Source: Escherichia phage vB_EcoM_JS09
Sequence record: NC_024124.2
DNA: 64,000 nt
Strand: one strand, 5' to 3'
Shown: one piece after another, positions 1,517 through 14,182 of the stretch
Numbering within the stretch: the stretch's first letter is position 1
Layout of the letters: each line of letters starts with the position of its first letter
Program-made: the position numbers and the translations under genes
Notes under the pieces: model-generated
Databases searched by the model: none
What the model was told of the DNA's origin: nothing
The model's input: only the letters and a program-made list of their open reading frames with translations

Positions 1517-2602
<1,086 letters not shown>

Positions 2603-2603
<1 letters not shown>

Positions 2604-2794
2604 TGAAACGATTATATGAAGTGATTGAGGCCATCGAACAGCATAAAGAATATTTGTTTGTAGCCTGGCCTTTAGTAAATGGACAGTTCGGTATTGATGT
2701 GCTGGACTATGAGCATGAAGAACGTTTGGACGGTGGTATATTTGATAACGTCGACCAGGCAATTGAATGGTTAAATGAAAACTATGTACGATAA
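2603..2794 (+). CDS. hypothetical protein (cd.x region)
   Basis: 63 aa ORF, taATG overlap with pseT stop. Confidence 0.5.
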
Positions 2795-2999
2795 ACATCA
2801 TGAAATCGAAGATGAAGCATACAAAATGCTTCGTAAACTAGTGGGACTTAATATGAGTCCTACATTAATCAACAAACTCGCAGGAATTCGTAATGATCTG
2901 AATACTCGTTACAAAGGCGAATATCATGTAGAGTTTGTTCCTGTAGGTGAACCGACCGAGCGATTTGTTGTTCGAGTTAAAGTAAATACTGTACACTGA
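2775..2999 (+). CDS. hypothetical protein (cd.x region)
   Basis: 74 aa ORF; start uncertain (ATG 2775 or 2784). Confidence 0.45.
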   Translation: MKTMYDKHHEIEDEAYKMLRKLVGLNMSPTLINKLAGIRNDLNTRYKGEYHVEFVPVGEPTERFVVRVKVNTVH

Positions 3000-3006
3000 G
3001 GTAATT

Positions 3007-3282
3007 ATGTTCCCAACTTATTCTGAAATTGTAAAGGTAGTCTTCAGTCAGATTATTGCTAATAATATGTTTGAAGTGCTTGATAATGCAGCCGAACTCA
3101 GAGTTCATGCTCAACTAACTCATGTACTCAATGCTTTGCTCCCAGACCAAGTAGATTCTATTGCTATTACTCTTCTCCCTGGGTCTGCGCACGTCATAGT
3201 GGTATTTGATCTTGATGGTGATTTAGTTATCCAGTGTGATATCAATTTCGGTACACAAAAAATTGAATGCAAAGCAATTTAA
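3007..3282 (+). CDS. hypothetical protein (cd.x region)
   Basis: 91 aa ORF with GAGGT RBS. Confidence 0.5.
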   Translation: MFPTYSEIVKVVFSQIIANNMFEVLDNAAELRVHAQLTHVLNALLPDQVDSIAITLLPGSAHVIVVFDLDGDLVIQCDINFGTQKIECKAI

Positions 3283-3284
3283 TG

Positions 3285-3314
3285 GTTTACAACATGGTGG
3301 AGTTGTGATACTAT
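3285..3314 (+). promoter_or_regulatory. T4-type early promoter nested in inverted repeat GGTGGAGTT/AACTCTACC
   Basis: GTTTAC 3285-3290, -10 region GATACTATA about 3307-3315; followed by GAGGAA RBS and ATG 3343. Confidence 0.6.
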
Positions 3315-3342
3315 AACTCTACCAACAAATGAGGAAATAGAA

Positions 3343-3579
3343 ATGCTAAGTGAAAACCCAATTACAGTACACGAATTTCAGATTAAAGTAAAAGAATTTG
3401 CTCAAGCACTCATCAATAAAGTGTCTGAACGTTTCCAAGATGCAACATTACGAGTTATTCAAGAATCTCCACGTTCTTTTCTCATAATCGTTAATCCTAA
3501 AGATGGTGACCAAATTACTAATCTTAAATTAGGCAGTGACGGTCTTGTTGAAGCAACTCGAGTATATGGAACACTATAA
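3343..3579 (+). CDS. hypothetical protein
   Basis: 78 aa ORF behind early promoter module. Confidence 0.55.
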   Translation: MLSENPITVHEFQIKVKEFAQALINKVSERFQDATLRVIQESPRSFLIIVNPKDGDQITNLKLGSDGLVEATRVYGTL

Positions 3580-3699: not shown

Positions 3700-4692
3700 A
3701 TGTTACCTGTCATCAGAAAACTTATTTCTCCAAAAGAACTGGCTGAGATTATTCCTTTGTCGGAAGCTTACGCATCACAAGTGGCTTCTCATCGCGAACA
3801 AGTTAATTCGATTATGAACGGTGAAGACCCACGCAAACTTATTGTTGTAGGTCCTTGTTCAATTCATGACCCTATTGCTGCTGTTGAATACGGCAAACGT
3901 CTGGCTGAACTTCAAACTCGTCTTCCTAATGTTCTGTTAGTGATGCGCGTTTATTTTGAAAAGCCTCGAACTACCGTAGGTTGGAAAGGTCTTGTAAATG
4001 ATCCATATCTTGACGGAAGTTTTGATATGAACCACGGTCTTATAGTTGCACGAACATTGTGTCGTAAACTTCTACGTATAGGACTTCCATTAGCAACTGA
4101 AGTATTAGACCCATTCACGATTAAGTATCTTTCTGGTATTTTCTCATGGGTTGCTATTGGCGCCCGTACGACTGAAAGTCAGACACATCGTGAAATTGCT
4201 TCAGGTCTACCGATGTGCGTAGGCTTCAAGAACGCAACCAATGGTTCTATTAAAGTAGCTACAGACGCGATGTATAGTGCCGCCTGGCCTCATCGGTATA
4301 TGGGTATGGACGTCGATGGTACTGTAGGCATTGTTGAAGCTGAAGGTAATCAGAATACGCATATCGTATTGCGTGGCGGGACCAACGGCCCGAACTATCA
4401 TTCTTCTGATATTCAAGAAGCTTCTAACAAAGCAAGGGCAGTAGGTCTGAATCATTATGTAATGGTTGACTGTAGCCATGCAAACGCTGATGGACATTAT
4501 AGCAATCAAATTGGTATTGGTAAAAATTTAGCAGCTAATGATTTGGTCAAAGGAATTATGATAGAATCATTCCTACATGAAGGAAATCAAAAAATTTCCG
4601 ATAATATGTCCTATGGCGTTTCCGTTACCGATGCGTGCATCAGTTGGGAACAAACTAAAGAGCTGTTAACTTATATTAATAAGGTTCAATAA
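3700..4692 (+). CDS. 3-deoxy-D-arabino-heptulosonate-7-phosphate (DAHP) synthase, class I (AroG/AroF/AroH-like)
   Basis: 330 aa; full-length colinearity with E. coli AroG as recalled: VVGPCSIHD, MRVYFEKPRTTVGWKGL, GARTTESQTHRE, GFKN, DCSHAN, ESFLHEGNQ, TDACISWE; stop overlaps cd start. Confidence 0.85.
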   Translation: MLPVIRKLISPKELAEIIPLSEAYASQVASHREQVNSIMNGEDPRKLIVVGPCSIHDPIAAVEYGKRLAELQTRLPNVLLVMRVYFEKPRTTVGWKGLVNDPYLDGSFDMNHGLIVARTLCRKLLRIGLPLATEVLDPFTIKYLSGIFSWVAIGARTTESQTHREIASGLPMCVGFKNATNGSIKVATDAMYSAAWPHRYMGMDVDGTVGIVEAEGNQNTHIVLRGGTNGPNYHSSDIQEASNKARAVGLNHYVMVDCSHANADGHYSNQIGIGKNLAANDLVKGIMIESFLHEGNQKISDNMSYGVSVTDACISWEQTKELLTYINKVQ

Positions 4693-5274: not shown

Positions 5275-5571
5275 ATGATTTTAACCGAACAAGAAACTAT
5301 GGTTCTTCGTGAACGTATTAAAACTATTCTGTCTGTAGGCGTTCATTGTGTTGTATTTGAAAAGGCTAACGGTGAGGTACGCACTATGTTTGCTTCGCGC
5401 GATGAACTTGAAGTCAAATATGAAAATAACAATCCGGCAACAGAAGTTCGTTATGAACCTCGTGAATCAGTTCGAGCATTCGATACCAAGTTAGGTCAGT
5501 GGCGTTCTTTCCGCCTTGATAAAGTAATTTCGGTTGATGGTACTCCGGTGGAACGTTTGCTTCTTATGTAA
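5275..5571 (+). CDS. hypothetical protein (31.x region)
   Basis: ORF track 5263..5571 starts on GTG; first ATG at 5275 directly after cd stop with GGTGAA RBS. Confidence 0.5.
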   Translation: MILTEQETMVLRERIKTILSVGVHCVVFEKANGEVRTMFASRDELEVKYENNNPATEVRYEPRESVRAFDTKLGQWRSFRLDKVISVDGTPVERLLLM

Positions 5572-5598
5572 TATGCTTTACGAATAGTATAGTATTAT
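5571..5598 (+). promoter_or_regulatory. candidate MotA-dependent middle promoter (MotA box ATATGCTTTA + -10 TATTAT)
   Basis: TGCTTTA 5574-5580, TATTAT 5593-5598, 12 nt spacing; upstream of gene 31. Confidence 0.5.
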
Positions 5599-5628
5599 TA
5601 ATCTATCGTCAAACAACAAGGAAATAAG

Positions 5629-5961
5629 ATGTCTGAAGTACAACTCCCAATTCGTGCTGTTGGTGAATATGTCATTCTGGTTTCTGAACCCGCTCAAGCA
5701 GGTGATGAAGAAGTTACAGAATCAGGACTTGTGATTGGTAAACGTGTTCAAGGTGAAGTTCCTGAACTATGTGTAGTTCATTCTGTAGGTCCTGATGTTC
5801 CTGAAGGTTTTGTTGAAGTCGGTGATTTGACTCCACTACCAGTTGGACAAATTCGAAATGTTCCACATCCATTTGTGGCTTTGGGACTTAAACAACCTAA
5901 AGAAATTAAACAGAAATTCGTAACATGCCACTATAAAGCTATTCCGTGTCTTTATAAGTGA
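5629..5961 (+). CDS. 31: co-chaperonin (GroES analogue) for capsid folding
   Basis: 110 aa; near-identical to T4 gp31 as recalled ([34 protein letters not shown]...). Confidence 0.95.
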
Positions 5962-6085
5962 TATAAATAACTATATGAAGAGAACACTCTTCTAAGCGGT
6001 AGCCTACAACTGAGAGACTTGTCGAAAGAAGGTGAAATTCAGACGAACGTGGCTACTAAATATTATCTCGAATTGAGAATTTAAA

Positions 6086-6334
6086 ATGATTAAACAATTA
6101 CAACACGCTCTTGAACTGCAACGCAACGCATGGAATAACGGTCACGAAAACTATGGCGCGTCGATTGATGTTGAAGCCGAAGCACTGGAAATCCTGCGTT
6201 ATTTCAAACACCTGAATCCTGCTCAGGCTACTCTGGCTTCTGAACTGGAAGCTAAAGATGAATTGAAATATGCTAAGCCTCTGGCTTCTGCAGCACGCAA
6301 AGCAGTTCGTCATTTTGTTATTACCCTGAAGTAA
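6086..6334 (+). CDS. rIII: rIII lysis-inhibition accessory protein
   Basis: 82 aa, same length and position as T4 rIII between 31 and the 30.x genes. Confidence 0.8.
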   Translation: MIKQLQHALELQRNAWNNGHENYGASIDVEAEALEILRYFKHLNPAQATLASELEAKDELKYAKPLASAARKAVRHFVITLK

Positions 6335-6356
6335 GTTAAATCGAGGAGCCGTCGAA

Positions 6357-6584
6357 TTGTCTGATTATCGATTTGCGAATCGGTATGTTTTAGAAGTACC
6401 GCCCCGACAATTTTACGGTGTACCTCTTGAATGTTACTATCATGCGTCAGAAAAGTGTTATCTGTGTAAGTCTTGGTGGTATGATGACGAGGTTTATGGT
6501 TATCCTGTCGTTAAATATCCAAAACCTATGTTCCCCTTGAGGGCTTGCGCAGGCAATGTCAATAAGTCCTGCATTTTCATTTAA
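6357..6584 (+). CDS. hypothetical Cys-rich small protein, TTG start
   Basis: 75 aa ORF; no in-frame ATG near 5' end; TTG 6357 lies 8 nt after GAGGAG. Confidence 0.4.
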   Translation: MSDYRFANRYVLEVPPRQFYGVPLECYYHASEKCYLCKSWWYDDEVYGYPVVKYPKPMFPLRACAGNVNKSCIFI

Positions 6585-6596
6585 AGAGAATTTATA

Positions 6597-6776
6597 ATGG
6601 CAAAACAAGCTAAAGCAAAGAAAGCAGTTGAAAAGAAAGTTGATGGTACCTCTAAACGCGCTGGATACAAGCGTGGGTCGAACTCTCGTATTAATCAAAC
6701 AGTTGAGAAGATCATGCGCAGAGCACGTGCAGTTCTTCGAGATGATGCTTCTCGTTTTGGAAAGGTTGTTGCATAA
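6597..6776 (+). CDS. hypothetical small basic protein (59 aa)
   Basis: Hand-translated MAKQAKAKKAVEKK...GKVVA; below 60-aa cutoff of ORF track; ends 5 nt before hairpin terminator. Confidence 0.5.
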   Translation: MAKQAKAKKAVEKKVDGTSKRAGYKRGSNSRINQTVEKIMRRARAVLRDDASRFGKVVA

Positions 6777-6781
6777 TTTTA

Positions 6782-6803
6782 GGGAGACTTCGGTCTCCCT
6801 TTT
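6782..6803 (+). terminator. rho-independent terminator, C(UUCG)G hairpin
   Basis: GGGAGAC-TTCG-GTCTCCC followed by TTTT. Confidence 0.75.
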
Positions 6804-6836
6804 GTGCGTTTAGGGCAGAAAAAGTTTAAAAAAGAT

Positions 6837-6865
6837 GTTTACTCTCCTGTAGGATGTGTTACTAT
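6837..6865 (+). promoter_or_regulatory. T4-type early promoter (GTTTAC ... TACTAT)
   Basis: GTTTAC 6837-6842, TACTAT 6860-6865 (17-nt spacer); GGAGAATAAAATG RBS/start at 6907. Confidence 0.6.
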
Positions 6866-6906
6866 AGACTTGTACCACCTAATCAATAAAACAATCGGAG
6901 AATAAA

Positions 6907-7275
6907 ATGAAAATCAATCTGAACTCATACATCAAATGTAAAGACCACGACGGTTATAAAGCTATCGAAATTAAAGAATTCCAGTGGATGTTATACAAAG
7001 AGCAATTTGAGTTCGTAGGTTGTATGACCCCTGAAGGTCCTTCAGATGATTTCTCTTGGAAAATTGTGTTAGCAAACTTTTTCACAGGTGACACATACGA
7101 ATTAAAAACTATTATTACCGGTAAAATTCGTTCAGAAACATATGTTGACGAAGAAACTGGTTACTCTGAAGATGTTACATGGTATCAAAATGGACGCATT
7201 ACAGCAGATAACCTGATCGAAAAAATGAAAGCCAAAGGTGTTTTAAATTTAGACAATTGGATTAAAGTTGCATAA
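6907..7275 (+). CDS. hypothetical protein (30.x region)
   Basis: 122 aa ORF behind early promoter and GGAG RBS. Confidence 0.6.
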   Translation: MKINLNSYIKCKDHDGYKAIEIKEFQWMLYKEQFEFVGCMTPEGPSDDFSWKIVLANFFTGDTYELKTIITGKIRSETYVDEETGYSEDVTWYQNGRITADNLIEKMKAKGVLNLDNWIKVA

Positions 7276-7279
7276 AACA

Positions 7280-7308
7280 GTTTACTTTGGTACAGGTTAT
7301 GTTATTAT
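7280..7308 (+). promoter_or_regulatory. T4-type early promoter nested in inverted repeat TGGTACAGGT/ACCTGTACCA
   Basis: GTTTAC 7280-7285, TATTAT 7303-7308; same GGAGAATAAAATG module as at 6907. Confidence 0.6.
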
Positions 7309-7349
7309 AGACCTGTACCAACAAACAACTTAAACATCTGGAGAATAAA

Positions 7350-7715
7350 ATGAACTACACCAACTTCGAACGCAAATATGTTTCTAACGGTATCGCTGGT
7401 TCTATCGATATGGTTTGTTTGTGGAAGCATAAAAATGGTTCAGTATGTGAAATTGAGCAGTGCATGACTCCTAATTATGTTTATATGCGATTTGAAAATG
7501 GCATCACGGTTTCAATCACGATGGAAGGTTCAAATTTTAAAATTGCATTAGATGATGATTTCCGTCAGCGTGATTTAGGTACTCATCCTTGCTGGAACGG
7601 CGTTAATCGTAAACTTCTGGTTAAAACTTGGATTCGTCATATCCTGAGTAACCGAGCTAAACATGAACATCTCGAAGCAATCTTTGATGTAGTTCTTAAC
7701 GAATTTGATATCTAA
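7350..7715 (+). CDS. hypothetical protein (30.x region)
   Basis: 121 aa ORF; shares CMTP motif and size with neighbouring 122-aa ORF. Confidence 0.6.
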   Translation: MNYTNFERKYVSNGIAGSIDMVCLWKHKNGSVCEIEQCMTPNYVYMRFENGITVSITMEGSNFKIALDDDFRQRDLGTHPCWNGVNRKLLVKTWIRHILSNRAKHEHLEAIFDVVLNEFDI

Positions 7716-7722
7716 TTTAACT

Positions 7723-7738
7723 GGGAGCTTCGGCTCCC
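7723..7738 (+). other. C(UUCG)G stem-loop without U-tract
   Basis: GGGAGC-TTCG-GCTCCC immediately before GAGGAA RBS of next gene. Confidence 0.5.
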
Positions 7739-7750
7739 ATTGAGGAAATT

Positions 7751-8365
7751 ATGTTTAAAGTTAATACTTTTTATAAAATGAATTTTAAAAATGGGGATAT
7801 TACTCCACGCCTTAAAAACATGTTCTCATATGACCTTATCGAGCCTTTTGAAGTTTTAGAAGTTACTGATGCCGGCTCGGTTTGTGAAATTAGAACGTCT
7901 GAAGGTAAAATTTATCAGGCAGGTGTTGGTAAATTCAGTAATTGTTTTACTTTAATATTCTCGACTGATTTAGATGAACATTTTATTGAATGTCATAACC
8001 ATAAGGTCTACGAAGTTCCACATCAAGAAACTAAGAAAAATGGCCCACATGAATATACGAAGGTTGAAACTCCTCACGGTGTGATGTGGCGTCATAACTC
8101 TCCTTTTGGAAGTAAAGGAACATTTGCTCAACTGCCTAAACCGTATGACGATGAAAAATACATCGTCGCCTTTTTATCTGAACAGGGTACTCAAGACCGT
8201 GGATGCCAAAGAAGTGGTTTACTAAGTGAACTTGAAGCTCATAACCAAGCACGTGAATTCGTTGAGAAAAATCCTGGTTCTGAAGCTCTAGTCATGAAAG
8301 CAGTTACTCAATATATCACTGCTCAACCTGTTGTTCATCCGGTAGAAATTAATTTCATTAAGTAG
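7751..8365 (+). CDS. hypothetical protein
   Basis: 204 aa ORF with GAGGAA RBS. Confidence 0.6.
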   Translation: MFKVNTFYKMNFKNGDITPRLKNMFSYDLIEPFEVLEVTDAGSVCEIRTSEGKIYQAGVGKFSNCFTLIFSTDLDEHFIECHNHKVYEVPHQETKKNGPHEYTKVETPHGVMWRHNSPFGSKGTFAQLPKPYDDEKYIVAFLSEQGTQDRGCQRSGLLSELEAHNQAREFVEKNPGSEALVMKAVTQYITAQPVVHPVEINFIK

Positions 8366-8395
8366 TTTACATCCAAGGACGGATTAGAGTATAAT
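8365..8395 (+). promoter_or_regulatory. T4-type early promoter
   Basis: GTTTAC 8365-8370 overlapping upstream stop codon, TATAAT 8390-8395. Confidence 0.5.
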
Positions 8396-8419
8396 GATTT
8401 CTTTAGTAAGTGGAAAAAT

Positions 8420-8617
8420 ATGAAATTTTTAATAGCACAAACAGTCCAATTAAAAGGTGTTGGAATTCCTGGGGTGATTTTTAAAGTTCTCCCTGAATTT
8501 AAAACCGCCGCTGGAATTATCAATGAAGCGTATGCTGTTCAATGGGTTGATTGGACTTCTGACATACGTATGGGTAAAGAGTTATCTCCTATTAAAGGGT
8601 TGAAACATGTTGAATAA
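8420..8617 (+). CDS. hypothetical protein
   Basis: 65 aa ORF downstream of early promoter. Confidence 0.5.
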   Translation: MKFLIAQTVQLKGVGIPGVIFKVLPEFKTAAGIINEAYAVQWVDWTSDIRMGKELSPIKGLKHVE

Positions 8618-8819
8618 ATTAATCCAGAAATTGTTAGGTACAGAAATGGTTGAAGTTACGTATCGTGTGACTGACTGCTCGCCTATTCATCCACAGGATG
8701 AACCATTTATCAAGACAATTAAAATGCTTAAAAACGATGGTGGTTTATCTATTGAAGACCGTCTGCCTAGTTACGGTCATTGGGCTGATGTTGAAATTAT
8801 AAGTGTTAAAGATGTCTGA
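8607..8819 (+). CDS. hypothetical protein
   Basis: 70 aa ORF overlapping neighbours at both ends. Confidence 0.5.
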   Translation: MLNKLIQKLLGTEMVEVTYRVTDCSPIHPQDEPFIKTIKMLKNDGGLSIEDRLPSYGHWADVEIISVKDV

Positions 8820-9270
8820 ATTAGAAATAAGAAGCAATTTCAAATGGCCGTCATGCGCATTAAGTAATTTCGCCCAATGGCCTTTTGTTATGGATGGTAT
8901 TCAATTCGGAGGACTTGAAGGATTTCTCCAAGGATGTAAGGTGAAAAACGTTGAACAACAAAAACGTATATTTGGGTTGTCTGGATTGGCTGCACAGCAA
9001 GCTGGAAGGTCTTATGCAAGAGCTCAGGACCGTGGGACTCTCTTCTGGTTAGGAGTTCCATTTTCAAGATACTCTGAAGCGTGGAAAGAATTATACACAA
9101 ATGCATATTTTGAAGCCGCGATCCAAAACAAGGGGTTTCGTGATGCCTTACAAGCCTCTAAAGGAAAAATTTTGAAGCACAGCATGGCCAGCCACCTAAC
9201 AAAAGATGATACAATATTAACCGAAGCTGAATTTATTGATGTGTTAAACCTATTAAGAGACTCTTTATGA
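8812..9270 (+). CDS. NADAR / YbiA-like (DUF1768) domain protein
   Basis: ORF track 8803..9270 starts on GTG; ATG at 8812 overlaps upstream stop; motif SNFAQWPFVMDGIQF...EGFLQGCK matches recalled YbiA signature. Confidence 0.7.
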   Translation: MSELEIRSNFKWPSCALSNFAQWPFVMDGIQFGGLEGFLQGCKVKNVEQQKRIFGLSGLAAQQAGRSYARAQDRGTLFWLGVPFSRYSEAWKELYTNAYFEAAIQNKGFRDALQASKGKILKHSMASHLTKDDTILTEAEFIDVLNLLRDSL

Positions 9271-10082
9271 AACCTACTATTTTGACTGATATTGATGGTG
9301 TATGTTTAAGCTGGCAATCTGGACTTCCTTATTTTGCCCAAAAATATAATCTTCCATTAGAACATATTTTAAAAATGATTCAGGACGAAAAATTTATTTC
9401 TCCTGGTAAACTATTCAATACCGACGATGACCTCGGTAAACAATTAATAGAAAAATATAATCGCTCTGATTTTATTCGTTACTTAGCGCCTTATTCGGAT
9501 GCTCTTCGAGTTATCAATAAACTAAAAGAAGACTATAATTTTGTAGCCGTGACGGCGCTAGGTGATTCAATTGATGCTCGATTGAATAGACAATTTAATT
9601 TGAATGCTTTGTTCCCAGGCGCTTTCTCTGAAGTAATGATGTGTGGTCATGATTCTTCAAAGGAACAATTATTTGAACTAGCTAAAACAAAATATAACGT
9701 GATTTGTTATGTTGACGATTTAGCTCATCACTGTGACCATGCGGCAGAAATTCTTAATGTACCGATTTATTGGTTGGCCCGTGGTGAACGTGATGATATT
9801 CCTCGCACTGCACAACGTGTACACACGTGGGATGATATTGAATCTCGTTTGGTTCCACCCGAGCATAATTCAGATTCAGATCGTGAAGACCTTTTAAAAC
9901 GATTGGCGGATTTACTTAAAGAATCTGGTGCAACAAGTCCAGGTGCATGGCCTAATCAAATTGGCGCTCCGTCGAATCCGTATACCTGGCGAACCCCAGG
10001 ACCAACCGATATGCGGCCATGGTGGACGATTCAAAACTTTCCTTTAGATTCGTCTAAATGGACTTGGTCTATAAATTGTTAA
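9267..10082 (+). CDS. HAD-like hydrolase-fold protein
   Basis: 271 aa; N-terminal DIDGV motif resembles HAD motif I; position of T4 30.2. Confidence 0.55.
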   Translation: MKPTILTDIDGVCLSWQSGLPYFAQKYNLPLEHILKMIQDEKFISPGKLFNTDDDLGKQLIEKYNRSDFIRYLAPYSDALRVINKLKEDYNFVAVTALGDSIDARLNRQFNLNALFPGAFSEVMMCGHDSSKEQLFELAKTKYNVICYVDDLAHHCDHAAEILNVPIYWLARGERDDIPRTAQRVHTWDDIESRLVPPEHNSDSDREDLLKRLADLLKESGATSPGAWPNQIGAPSNPYTWRTPGPTDMRPWWTIQNFPLDSSKWTWSINC

Positions 10083-10091
10083 GGGATACTT

Positions 10092-10361
10092 ATGTTTGTA
10101 GTTCATGATATTACAGATGGCAAAAACACCACACGTGACTACGGTCACGTTAACATGTTCTTTCGAGACTGGCCGTTGTTTCGTTCAGTAAAAGACGCAG
10201 AAATATTTAAAGAGTGTGTTGAACAAGGGTTCATCTACATTTCAGAATACTATGTTGAAGGGCTCGGTAAATGGATTACCACTTATCAGAAAACTCTGAA
10301 ATCGCTTCTAGATGAAGTGGCTTATAATAGAACCGTAACCAAAATCGAGGACATCAAATGA
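10092..10361 (+). CDS. hypothetical protein (position of T4 30.1)
   Basis: 89 aa ORF, AAGGGA RBS, stop overlaps ligase start. Confidence 0.55.
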   Translation: MFVVHDITDGKNTTRDYGHVNMFFRDWPLFRSVKDAEIFKECVEQGFIYISEYYVEGLGKWITTYQKTLKSLLDEVAYNRTVTKIEDIK

Positions 10362-11851
10362 TTTTAGATATTTTAAACCAAATAGCTGCGATCGGTTCTA
10401 CTAAAACAAAACAAGAAATCCTTAAGAAAAATAAGGACAACAAATTACTTGAACGTGTGTATCGTTTAACATATGCACGTGGTATCCAGTATTATATTAA
10501 GAAATGGCCAGGACCAGGTGAAAGGTCTCAAGCGTATGGTCTTCTTGAATTAGATGACATGTTGGATTTTATTGAGTTCACATTAGCCACTCGTAAACTC
10601 ACTGGTAATGCTGCAATTAAAGAGCTCATGGGTTATATCGCTGACGGTAAACCTGATGATGTAGAAGTCCTTCGTCGTGTAATGATGCGCGACCTTGAAG
10701 TAGGTGCTTCAGTGTCTATCGCGAATAAGGTGTGGCCTGGACTTATTCAATTGCAACCACAGATGTTAGCATCTGCATATGACGAGAAATTGATTACTAA
10801 AAATATTAAATGGCCTGCATTTGCTCAATTAAAAGCCGATGGTGCTCGTTGTTTTGCTGAAGTTCGTGATGATGGTGTTCAATTCTTTTCTCGTGCTGGT
10901 AATGAATACCATGGTCTTACCCTATTAGCAGATGAACTAATGGAAATGACTAAAGAAGCTCGTGAAAGACACCCTAATGGGGTTTTAATCGACGGTGAAT
11001 TAGTTTATCATTCATTTGATATTAAAAAGGCTGTGAGCTCAGGAAATGACCTGTCGTTCTTATTTGGTGATAATGAAGAATCCGAAGAAGTACAAGTTGC
11101 AGACCGTAGCACTTCAAATGGTTTAGCAAATAAATCTCTTCAAGGGACTATTTCTCCTAAAGAAGCGGAAGGTATGGTTCTTCAAGCCTGGGACTATGTT
11201 CCTTTAGATGAAGTCTATTCTGATGGCAAAATTAAAGGTCAGAAATACGATGTTCGTTTTGCTGCTCTTGAAAATATGGCTGAAGGCTTTAAACGAATTG
11301 AGCCAATTGAAAATCAGTTAGTTCGTAATCTTGACGAAGCTAAAGTGGTTTATAAAAAATATGTTGACCAAGGTCTTGAAGGTATTATCCTTAAAAACCG
11401 TGATTCATATTGGGAAAACAAACGCTCTAAGAATCTAATTAAATTTAAAGAAGTTATTGATATCGCTTTAGAAGTTGTAGGATACTATGAACACTCTAAA
11501 GACCCTAACAAATTAGGTGGTGTCGAACTCGTATCACGTTGTCGTCGTATTACAACTGATTGTGGTTCAGGTTTTAAAGATACAACTCATAAAACAGTTG
11601 ATGGTGTAAAGGTTCTTATTCCTTTAGATGAGCGTCATGATTTAGACCGTGAACGATTAATGGCTGAAGCTCGTGAAGGTAAATTGATTGGACGTATTGC
11701 TGATTGTGAATGCAATGGTTGGGTTCATTCTAAAGGACGTGAAGGCACTGTAGGTATTTTCCTTCCAATTATTAAAGGGTTCCGTTTTGATAAAACAGAA
11801 GCGGATTCATTTGAAGACGTATTTGGACCGTGGTCCCAGACAGGTTTATAA
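10358..11851 (+). CDS. 30: ATP-dependent DNA ligase
   Basis: 497 aa; near-identical N-terminus to T4 DNA ligase (MILDILNQIAAIGSTKTKQEILKKNKDN...), KADGAR adenylation motif. Confidence 0.95.
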   Translation: MILDILNQIAAIGSTKTKQEILKKNKDNKLLERVYRLTYARGIQYYIKKWPGPGERSQAYGLLELDDMLDFIEFTLATRKLTGNAAIKELMGYIADGKPDDVEVLRRVMMRDLEVGASVSIANKVWPGLIQLQPQMLASAYDEKLITKNIKWPAFAQLKADGARCFAEVRDDGVQFFSRAGNEYHGLTLLADELMEMTKEARERHPNGVLIDGELVYHSFDIKKAVSSGNDLSFLFGDNEESEEVQVADRSTSNGLANKSLQGTISPKEAEGMVLQAWDYVPLDEVYSDGKIKGQKYDVRFAALENMAEGFKRIEPIENQLVRNLDEAKVVYKKYVDQGLEGIILKNRDSYWENKRSKNLIKFKEVIDIALEVVGYYEHSKDPNKLGGVELVSRCRRITTDCGSGFKDTTHKTVDGVKVLIPLDERHDLDRERLMAEAREGKLIGRIADCECNGWVHSKGREGTVGIFLPIIKGFRFDKTEADSFEDVFGPWSQTGL

Positions 11852-12039
11852 TGAAAGCTTATTTAGAAACAGTTATTGTAGCTAAGAAGGATGGTGGAGA
11901 TGTTTCCACCTCTTGCTCTCAGATTATATTAGATTTTCCTAATGAAAATTCGTATCGGGTTTTCGTAGATAATGTTAATGGGTACGAAAAAGGCCCTAAT
12001 TTTGAAGTTTATCGTACTTTGCTCCCGATTGTGGATTAA
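11851..12039 (+). CDS. hypothetical protein
   Basis: ORF track 11830..12039 starts on GTG; ATG 11851 overlaps ligase stop; followed by terminator. Confidence 0.45.
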   Translation: MKAYLETVIVAKKDGGDVSTSCSQIILDFPNENSYRVFVDNVNGYEKGPNFEVYRTLLPIVD

Positions 12040-12058
12040 GAGCCTTCGGGCTCTTTTT
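12038..12058 (+). terminator. rho-independent terminator, C(UUCG)G hairpin
   Basis: AAGAGCC-TTCG-GGCTCTT followed by TTT. Confidence 0.7.
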
Positions 12059-12094
12059 GGCATAAATATAAATTATTACTAAAAGGAAAACACT

Positions 12095-14182
12095 ATGTCT
12101 GAACAATTAAATGAAGTGTTTGAATCTGAAGGCAGTCTTCCTGTCGTCAATTTGAACCCTAAAGCTAAAGTTCCACAAGTCTGGAAAATTGGTGATATCG
12201 ATACAAACATCGTAGTTCGCTTATTCTCTTATCTTTCTGAAGGCGATGCTGTAAAACAAGTTAAACTTGGCGACAAATATGCTCATGTTGTTATTATGAG
12301 TCTGTCTGAAAAGGGTAATCTCGCTGAATTGAAAAATGGCCTTGGTCCTGCTCCTATTGATGCAATCAACACCATTTTCAATACAGTGTATGAACAGGTT
12401 AAAGCTCTTCGTATGGATGCAGTTCTGTTCCGATTCCCTACCAAGAAATTGAAAGGACGTGGACAACAGCTTCAAACTCTTCTTGCTCGTTTAGTTTCTA
12501 CTAAAACCGGTGGTCGTTTTAAAGTATTGTCGGCAATGTATCAATTCACAGGTAAACACACCTATGTGATGATGGTTCGTAAAAATGCCAACATTGAAGA
12601 TATTAAAGGCATCCCTAACATTAACACAGAGTTGTACACGAAAGTAGATTCTGATGTTGGCGAAGTTTATGTGAGTAAAAAGACTGGCGAAAAGGTCACC
12701 AAAGAAACGGCTATCGCTGGTTCTATTGCTGCTGTAGAAGAAAAACGTAAAGATAAGCCTGTTATTGCTCGTACTAAAATTTCTCGTCGTGCTATTGCAG
12801 CAAGTCAATCTTTAGAAGCTGACCGCCAAGAAGGTGAGTTATTCCAGAAATACGAAAATTCTGCTAAAGAAGTTAGTGGCCCAGCTACGGCCGAATTACT
12901 TCCCGAAGCATATGAAATCGTACTAGCCCAAGCATCGTCCACAGCAAAAGGCACTTTAGTTGCTGATATCGAAAATAAGATTTATAATCGTATTGATGAA
13001 TCCTTTAGATTTGCTGATGAAGTTTCTTATGGTAGTGTTATTAAGCCAACTTTAGAAAAGTTTGCTAAGAAAATTAAAACCGAAAAAACAACATCTGTTA
13101 AAGCATTAGCTGCTTTTGTTGAAGCTGCAAATGAAATTGCAGACTCTATTAAAGACGAATGGTTTGAAGATTTTAGACGAGATAATTTCCAACTGACAGA
13201 CGACGTTTTAGCTGAAGTATCTGAAAAAACTTGGAAACAACGTAAATCAGCGTTCTTGTCTAATGTGATGTATACTTATGCACGAGAATCGGCCAGAGGC
13301 ACCTTTAATATAACAATGAATCGGGACCCTAAACAATACTCTGTTGCTGAAAAACGAGCTATTCGTGAATATGCCTCTTCTGCGTATACCGATATCAATA
13401 ATATGTTGTTAGGTCGTTATAAACCGGATTTTTACGATGTTGCAGATGAAGATGAAGTTAAACGCGCTATTGATGGTCTTGATTCGGCGTTTTTAAATGG
13501 AGACCGTTTACCTGAAGGACTAACGTTATATAGAGCTCAGTCTATCAGAATGCCTATTTACGAAGCAATGGTTAAAAATAAGGTATTCTACTTCAGAAAC
13601 TATGTTTCCACTTCACTAGCTCCTATTATTTTCGGTGGGTTTAAAGAGAACGTTGCCCTTGGACTTGCTCCTGAAGAAGTTCGCAAAGAGCTTAACATTG
13701 ATAATAATGACGAAGGTGTTACTATTTCTCCTAGTCAAGTAAGAACAGCTATGCATGCACCAGAACAAATCCGTGTTAACGTTGGATGGGCTATTGATGG
13801 CGCCCATAAAGTTAACGTGATTTATCCAGGACAGTTGAGTAATCACCCTAATGAGCAAGAAATTATTTTGCCTAGAGGCATTCTCTTGCAGATAAATAAA
13901 ATTACAGATGCGTCATCTGATACTGGTGCAGGTTTAGAATCCAACCTTAAATTTATTCAAGCTGAAGTCATGTCCTCAGACCAGTTAGATGAAGCTGTCA
14001 TTTATGATGGTGATGTTCTCATGGAAACAGGCGAGGTAGTTGCTATGACAGGTGAAATCGAATCAGATGAGCCGGTATCTTTTGCCTCATTTGTAGAAAA
14101 AACTAGTGCACCTAAAGGTTTGAAATTGTTAGCATCTTTAATGGATTTAGAATCAGTTCCGTTTAAATTTGTCCAAGGATAG
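12095..14182 (+). CDS. alt: ADP-ribosyltransferase Alt (virion-packaged)
   Basis: 695 aa; position next to ligase and shared stretches with T4 Alt as recalled (ISRRAIA.SQSLE). Confidence 0.85.
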   Translation: MSEQLNEVFESEGSLPVVNLNPKAKVPQVWKIGDIDTNIVVRLFSYLSEGDAVKQVKLGDKYAHVVIMSLSEKGNLAELKNGLGPAPIDAINTIFNTVYEQVKALRMDAVLFRFPTKKLKGRGQQLQTLLARLVSTKTGGRFKVLSAMYQFTGKHTYVMMVRKNANIEDIKGIPNINTELYTKVDSDVGEVYVSKKTGEKVTKETAIAGSIAAVEEKRKDKPVIARTKISRRAIAASQSLEADRQEGELFQKYENSAKEVSGPATAELLPEAYEIVLAQASSTAKGTLVADIENKIYNRIDESFRFADEVSYGSVIKPTLEKFAKKIKTEKTTSVKALAAFVEAANEIADSIKDEWFEDFRRDNFQLTDDVLAEVSEKTWKQRKSAFLSNVMYTYARESARGTFNITMNRDPKQYSVAEKRAIREYASSAYTDINNMLLGRYKPDFYDVADEDEVKRAIDGLDSAFLNGDRLPEGLTLYRAQSIRMPIYEAMVKNKVFYFRNYVSTSLAPIIFGGFKENVALGLAPEEVRKELNIDNNDEGVTISPSQVRTAMHAPEQIRVNVGWAIDGAHKVNVIYPGQLSNHPNEQEIILPRGILLQINKITDASSDTGAGLESNLKFIQAEVMSSDQLDEAVIYDGDVLMETGEVVAMTGEIESDEPVSFASFVEKTSAPKGLKLLASLMDLESVPFKFVQG

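Follow-up and report, generated by a model that had tools for sequence, protein, structure and literature searches.

The window, which is the whole 64,000-nt stretch of Escherichia phage vB_EcoM_JS09 (NC_024124.2) that was analysed, contains the 30.x early region of a T-even phage, in which genes 30.4, 30.3, 30.2, and 30.1 and the DNA ligase gene follow each other in the same order and with the same overlaps as in T4, RB69, and Bas46 (Table 1). A preliminary description of this DNA, made from the sequence alone, had singled out 30.3 as a NADAR/YbiA-like gene, and our reading of the ORF agrees with it in boundaries and length. The gene is indeed the third one upstream of the ligase gene, and alt, which had been mentioned as a nearby ADP-ribosyltransferase gene, shares its strand and lies ~2.8 kb downstream of it, with alt.1 between ligase and alt. 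The description of the region as variable is also borne out: where T4, RB69, and Bas46 have 30.6, the window has an unrelated ORF of 204 aa, with no Pfam match, no PADLOC match, and no similarity to T4 30.6. PADLOC likewise returned no matches for 30.3 and 30.2. No DarT1 gene lies beside 30.3, whose immediate neighbours are 30.4 and 30.2.

Table 1. Coordinates of gene 30.3 (adfN), its sites of interest, and its neighbours in the window
Feature	Position	Strand	Description
ORF in 30.6 slot, upstream of the 30.5-like ORF	7751..8365	+	204 aa; phrog_17531 at 1.9e-146, function unknown
30.5-like ORF	8420..8617	+	65 aa
30.4	8607..8819	+	70 aa, directly upstream of 30.3
30.4 stop/30.3 start overlap	8812..8819	+	8 nt, ATGTCTGA; read from the sequence
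adfN (gene 30.3) CDS	8812..9270	+	phage-type NADAR, predicted DNA ADP-ribosylglycohydrolase; ATG start, 152 aa, TGA stop at 9268-9270
E36, catalytic glutamate	8917..8919	+	GAA; equivalent to T4 AdfN E36, YbiA E48, PnNADAR E43, E. coli C7 NADAR E88
K43, catalytic/ADPr-binding lysine	8938..8940	+	AAG; equivalent to T4 K43, YbiA K55
H123, histidine marking the phage gp30.3 branch	9178..9180	+	CAC; assigned by invariance and hhalign position
C-terminal helix, residues 138-152	9223..9267	+	EAEFIDVLNLLRDSL; identical to T4, lost in the RB69 frameshift allele
30.3 stop/30.2 start overlap	9267..9270	+	4 nt, ATGA; read from the sequence
30.2	9267..10082	+	271 aa, weakly HAD-like; PF13419 HAD_2, E = 0.023, below cutoff
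30.1	10092..10361	+	PF11243
DNA ligase	10358..11851	+	PF01068
alt	12095..14182	+	PF03496, E = 6e-28

An in-frame GTG at 8803 would provide an alternative start and a product of 155 aa, but the annotated starts of the orthologues in T4, RB69, and Bas46 are the ATG equivalent to that at 8812. The 8-nt overlap of this start with the stop of 30.4 is also annotated in these three phages, and it makes translational coupling of 30.4 and 30.3 probable. At the other end, the ATGA that joins 30.3 to 30.2 is shared with T4 and Bas46. T4 has, in addition, an internal, out-of-frame gene annotated as 30.3'. In the window the corresponding frame (8948..9178, plus strand, frame +2 in adfN) is closed: its ATG is replaced by ACG, which leaves the AdfN sequence unaltered, and a stop follows after 34 codons. 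This argues against 30.3' being a conserved gene. Three minus-strand ORFs inside adfN (46, 72, and 53 aa) were considered as genes as well and found to be unsupported.

The best sigma-70-like site between 5.5 and 12.2 kb (8366..8395, plus strand; TTTACA, an 18-nt spacer, and TATAAT, with 11 of 12 matches) is situated within the 54-nt gap directly upstream of the 30.5-like ORF. Judged by its sequence and position, it is a possible early promoter of the string 30.5-30.4-adfN-30.2-30.1-ligase. The scan of positions 5500..12200 for promoters and terminators gave 23 sites, with 21.0 ± 4.7 expected from shuffles, and hence no enrichment.

The product of 30.3 matches the Phage_30_3 family (PF08010) over the entire profile (positions 1 to 138 of 138) with 231.9 bits (cutoff, 36; E = 2.4e-69), and in the PHROGs collection it falls into phrog_652 (E = 1.2e-51). 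It is 96% identical to T4 gp30.3 over 152 residues with no indels, the six substitutions being K11R, K51R, E89P, I120V, M125I, and H128G (window residue first). Identity is 97% to AdfN of Bas46 and 100% to the copy in phage HX01. A tblastn search with the protein matched 1,509 phage records, 1,502 of them with at least 80% coverage; identity was ~96% to the T4-type phages and 32 to 45% in phages of Aeromonas, Klebsiella, Acinetobacter, Vibrio, Caulobacter, Rhizobium, and Ralstonia, and ~40 phage records carry the window allele at an identity of at least 99%. At the DNA level, third codon positions account for 37 of the 49 nucleotide differences between the window and T4. These differences correspond to 34 synonymous and 6 nonsynonymous codon changes and give a dN/dS (NG86) of 0.06, and the gene is under purifying selection. 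As for the phage itself, the first 25 kb of the window share 98.4% identity with phages F2 and HX01, and the relative Bas46 is classified as Mosigvirus; therefore, we assign it to the RB69 group, as a Mosigvirus-type phage.

The preliminary description had based its proposal on the YbiA/NADAR signature, and this signature is present: SNFAQWPFVMDGIQF comprises residues 18 to 32, and EGFLQGCK comprises residues 36 to 43. It had also suggested an HMM search against NADAR and had counted a missing match against the whole reading. A direct match to the Pfam NADAR family (PF08719) is in fact missing at E ≤ 1, and the window protein has neither an NCBIfam match nor a match to the PADLOC DarG models, nor did phmmer find a PDB sequence. 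However, to reject the assignment on these grounds would be too strict, because the phage branch is a family of its own in Pfam (PF08010), and comparisons of profile and fold put this branch firmly in the NADAR superfamily. Of 75 full-length family members, 31 match PF08719 individually (best E = 1.5e-7), and for one family member (P0084) both PF08010 and PF08719 are among the precomputed calls. Searched against the PDB, the family profile found E. coli YbiA (2b3w) as the top entry (E = 0.0048), aligned across SNF...E...K. Alignment of the family profile with YbiA by hhalign gave a probability of 94.3% (E = 9.8e-8) for residues 15 to 122, and even pairwise BLASTP against YbiA reached E = 1e-5 over the motif. 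An AlphaFold2 model, calculated from 74 sequences in an alignment without the T4 row, had a mean pLDDT of 94.1 and a pTM of 0.89, and Foldseek with this model against the PDB retrieved 2b3w (8.8e-5), 8bau, and 8bat as the only notable entries. The predicted structure has the YbiA/NADAR fold, with a helical core and two small beta-sheets flanking it. Taken together with the residues discussed below, the profile and fold comparisons establish that 30.3 of the window belongs to the NADAR superfamily, in its gp30.3/AdfN branch. For annotation this means that the T-even branch escapes the NADAR model of Pfam, and most database records of that branch say "hypothetical protein."

NADARs have a conserved catalytic Glu and Lys, as described for the enzymes of E. 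coli C7 (E88/K95) and PnNADAR (E43/K50). Both HMMER and hhalign align E36 and K43 of the window protein to E48 and K55 of YbiA, and these two residues, as well as H123, are invariant in the alignment of 75 sequences, down to 35% identity. H123 stands opposite YbiA E125 if the hhalign alignment, which stops at K122 of the window and V124 of YbiA, is extended by one residue, and it directly follows the modelled strand 120-122. The third catalytic position is known to be His in the phage gp30.3 branch, Glu in the YbiA family, and Asp in the BC4488/DarG1 family (PMC11543638, PMC11125620). Since the window protein does not have the Asp at this position, the N-terminal extension, or an adjacent darT1, it is outside the DarG1/BC4488 branch, and since His123 takes the place of the Glu, it is outside the YbiA branch. 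Codon 128 (9193..9195) attracted attention on its own account: all three of its bases are changed between the window (CAC, His) and T4, RB69, and Bas46 (GGT, Gly), and the two codons before it have one synonymous change each. H128, five residues past the catalytic H123, is part of a loop whose sequence varies within the family.

A comparison with characterized NADARs makes the position of the window protein clearer. The members of the DarG1/BC4488 family (G. lovleyi, 8bat, and E. coli C7; PMC11543638) have roughly 220 to 234 aa including a basic N-terminal extension, compared to 152 aa in the window; the G. lovleyi chain has 219 residues, and the homology of the window protein to YbiA starts at residue 15. 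DarG1 has Asp at the third catalytic position and is encoded next to darT1, whereas 30.3 of the window has His123 and is an orphan, although its predicted activity is the same as that of DarG1. Furthermore, DarG1 is an antitoxin, and the T4 orthologue of window 30.3 does not act as an antitoxin in uninfected cells. YbiA of E. coli, a riboflavin-intermediate N-glycosidase with ~20% identity to the window protein, differs by Glu125 in place of His123 and by its location on the chromosome under LexA regulation; in vivo, YbiA gives no protection against DarT1 (PMC11125620). AdfN(Bas32), from a T5-like phage, and AdfN(Bas60), from a member of the Vequintavirinae, are, like the window protein, orphan NADARs encoded by phages; both counter DarTG1, with specificity for guanine-linked ADPr, yet they belong to other NADAR clades, were acquired independently, and do not need a T-even factor (PMC11825919). 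BLAST and PSI-BLAST searches starting from AdfN(T4) miss both of them (PMC11825919).

The main reference is the T4 protein. AdfN(T4) and the window copy have in common the gene slot between 30.4 and 30.2 upstream of ligase, the length of 152 aa, E36, K43, and H123, the C-terminal helix, and both overlaps; they differ by the six substitutions, by the phage (a Tequatrovirus in the case of T4), and by 30.3', which is annotated in T4 and closed in the window. A second reference is gp30.3 of RB69, from the same phage group and 97% identical over its 137 residues. RB69 is sensitive to DarTG1 because a T inserted near nucleotide 411 shortens its AdfN by 15 residues (PMC11825919). With a frameshifted allele in the namesake of the group, one may ask whether the window carries a decaying or inactive allele of this kind. 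The DNA alignment shows that the insertion is absent from the window: the product has its full length of 152 aa, its C-terminal end is identical to that of T4 and is modelled as a helix from residue 138 to 151 (block-mean pLDDT, 94 to 98), and the three catalytic residues are present. The full-length sequence without a frameshift and the dN/dS of 0.06 contradict an RB69-like pseudogene, and we regard this explanation as most improbable. In IMG/VR, a 38-mer spanning the RB69 frameshift had 0 exact matches and the intact version had 4; the numbers are small but agree with the RB69 lesion being an exception. On every point examined, adfN of the window is an intact orthologue of T4 gene 30.3.

What this gene does in T4 has been worked out in some detail. 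From comparative genomics, T4 gene 30.3 had been recognized as a NADAR superfamily member belonging to a phage branch (work cited in PMC11543638 and PMC11125620; compare PMC9503650). Purified T4 gp30.3 hydrolyses guanosine-linked but not thymidine-linked ADPr on DNA in vitro (PMC11125620), and it does not rescue uninfected cells from DarT1 toxicity (PMC11125620, PMC11825919). The DarTG1 resistance of T-even phages was then mapped to gene 30.3, which was renamed adfN, for anti-DarT factor NADAR (Johannesman et al. 2025, PMC11825919). According to the same study (PMC11825919), T4 and T2 without adfN do not form plaques on DarTG1 cells, RB69 is fully rescued when adfN is supplied ectopically, the E36A and K43A variants and a C-terminal truncation of T4 AdfN are impaired, and the purified T4 protein strips ADPr from DarT1-modified DNA.

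In view of these experiments, we propose, with a probability of roughly 90%, that 30.3 of the window is an intact orthologue of T4 adfN and encodes a DNA ADP-ribosylglycohydrolase that counters DarTG1. For the window copy itself, activity and counter-defence role are inferred from its 96% identity to T4 AdfN and from the fact that all features with a known importance are conserved in it. The preliminary description had suggested an eraser of DarT-type guanine ADP-ribosylation with a role in counter-defence, and the experiments with the T4 orthologue support this suggestion (PMC11125620, PMC11825919). It had added that the function followed from family membership only. The family is the right one, but "only" no longer applies, as the function has been established experimentally for the T4 orthologue. 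By the same token, the function is already published, and the window copy adds no new biology.

In our model, adfN would be expressed early, as suggested by its position in the early region and by the published account of T4-like NADARs (PMC9503650). Infection would trigger the DarTG1 system of the host, and DarT1 would ADP-ribosylate guanines in the phage DNA, by which replication would be blocked. AdfN, a single-domain NADAR with a predicted YbiA fold, would then act as an N-glycosidase, hydrolysing the N-glycosidic bond between ribose and guanine under release of ADP-ribose. Catalysis may involve Glu36 and Lys43 together with His123, which would replace the Asp or Glu of cellular NADARs. 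Unmodified DNA would be restored in this way, and replication of the phage could proceed. For DarTG1 and the T4 orthologue, modification by DarT1, removal by AdfN, and resumed replication are established (PMC11825919).

Two other roles for an intact AdfN have to be weighed against this. Since the NADAR genes of T4-like phages are early genes that accompany genes for ARTs, and their closeness to Alt has already been remarked upon (PMC9503650), AdfN could regulate the phage ARTs Alt, ModA, and ModB by erasing their marks on host proteins or RNA; in the window, too, alt is near and on the same strand. However, guanine-linked ADPr is a substrate of every NADAR tested to date and thymidine-ADPr of none (PMC11125620, PMC11543638); the NADAR papers cited here do not report activity on protein-linked ADPr. 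The linkage to alt is lost in distant homologues, and the known deletion phenotype is specific for DarTG1. Proximity is the only argument in favour of a role in reversing Alt or Mod modifications, and we consider such a role very unlikely.

The other possibility is that the main substrate of AdfN is a soluble ADPr derivative, RNA-linked ADPr, or a by-product of RNA repair, and that the activity against DarT1 is secondary. A soluble or RNA substrate has been suggested before (PMC9503650), and the failure of T4 AdfN to detoxify DarT1 in uninfected cells (PMC11825919) would be in line with it. The surroundings of distant 30.3 homologues also point in this direction. In Aeromonas phage 31 and Ralstonia phage RSP15 the homologue lies within a cluster of tRNA genes, in CcrColossus it is next to an RNA ligase gene, and on a 308-kb metagenomic contig it is near NUDIX and Thg1 genes. 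These contexts, which are unlike the ligase/alt neighbourhood of the T-even phages, hint that the substrates in those lineages may be related to RNA or nucleotides. But the four homologues are only 32 to 43% identical to the window protein and do not come from T-even phages. Moreover, deletion of adfN from T4 or T2 abolishes plaquing specifically on DarTG1 hosts, purified T4 AdfN clears DarT1-modified DNA of its ADPr, and rescue is lost in catalytic mutants (PMC11825919). A soluble or RNA-borne main substrate is the strongest rival to the anti-DarT1 function, with which it is not mutually exclusive; in T-even phages it is outweighed by the DarTG1-specific deletion phenotype, and we rate it as unlikely.

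With AdfN taken as a DNA ADP-ribosylglycohydrolase directed against DarTG1, the question of its partners arises. Full activity of T4 AdfN requires a further T-even-specific factor (PMC11825919, PMC11125620) and is independent of DNA hypermodification (PMC11825919). We considered 30.4 and the HAD-like 30.2 as candidates because both overlap adfN and because the overlaps are kept in T4, Bas46, and the window. If one of them supplied the factor, the unit of counter-defence would be a small module and not a single gene. Nevertheless, we think it unlikely that the factor is either of the two. For 30.2 in particular, the comparative data lend no support to a partnership. Aeromonas phage 31, CcrColossus, RSP15, and two metagenomic phage contigs have no HAD-like 30.2 beside 30.3, and the 254-aa gene that follows the homologue on the 308-kb contig is not related to 30.2. 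In Vibrio phage phi-Grn1 (positions 2507..3458 of the phage region that we labelled L006), the 30.3 homologue overlaps a downstream gene for a HAD-type NT5C 5'(3')-deoxyribonucleotidase (PF06941, 3e-12). This NT5C protein has only the region of the DxD motif in common with T-even 30.2, and it is the sole HAD neighbour of 30.3 among the distant phages examined. A functional pair of 30.3 and 30.2, deduced from co-conservation, was therefore rejected: 30.2 is missing in the distant phages, and the HAD gene of phi-Grn1 is the sole exception.

Because its adfN looks intact, the phage of the window is expected to resist DarTG1, in contrast to RB69, its laboratory relative. The closest relatives of RB69 offer a parallel. 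Bas46 and Bas47, the closest ones tested, have a non-functional AdfA of the RB69 type, and Bas46 is fully resistant to DarTG1 despite this (PMC11825919). If the phage of the window also had a non-functional, RB69-type AdfA (gene 61.2), AdfN would be its main or only factor against DarTG1. Recognition of intact adfN alleles may be of use in annotation and in the prediction of host ranges for phage-therapy candidates.

A further gene of the window is worth recording apart from adfN. Between pseT and the dCMP deaminase gene, a gene for a class I DAHP synthase (3700..4692, plus strand, 330 aa) is present, as evidenced by PF00793 (5.2e-75) and by the NCBIfam equivalog for aroFGH, TIGR00034 (427.7 bits; cutoff, 173). 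The same slot holds only small cd.x ORFs in T4 and RB69. DAHP synthase is found as an auxiliary metabolic gene in 211 phage records, mostly from Mosigvirus-type E. coli phages including Bas46, where it is usually annotated.
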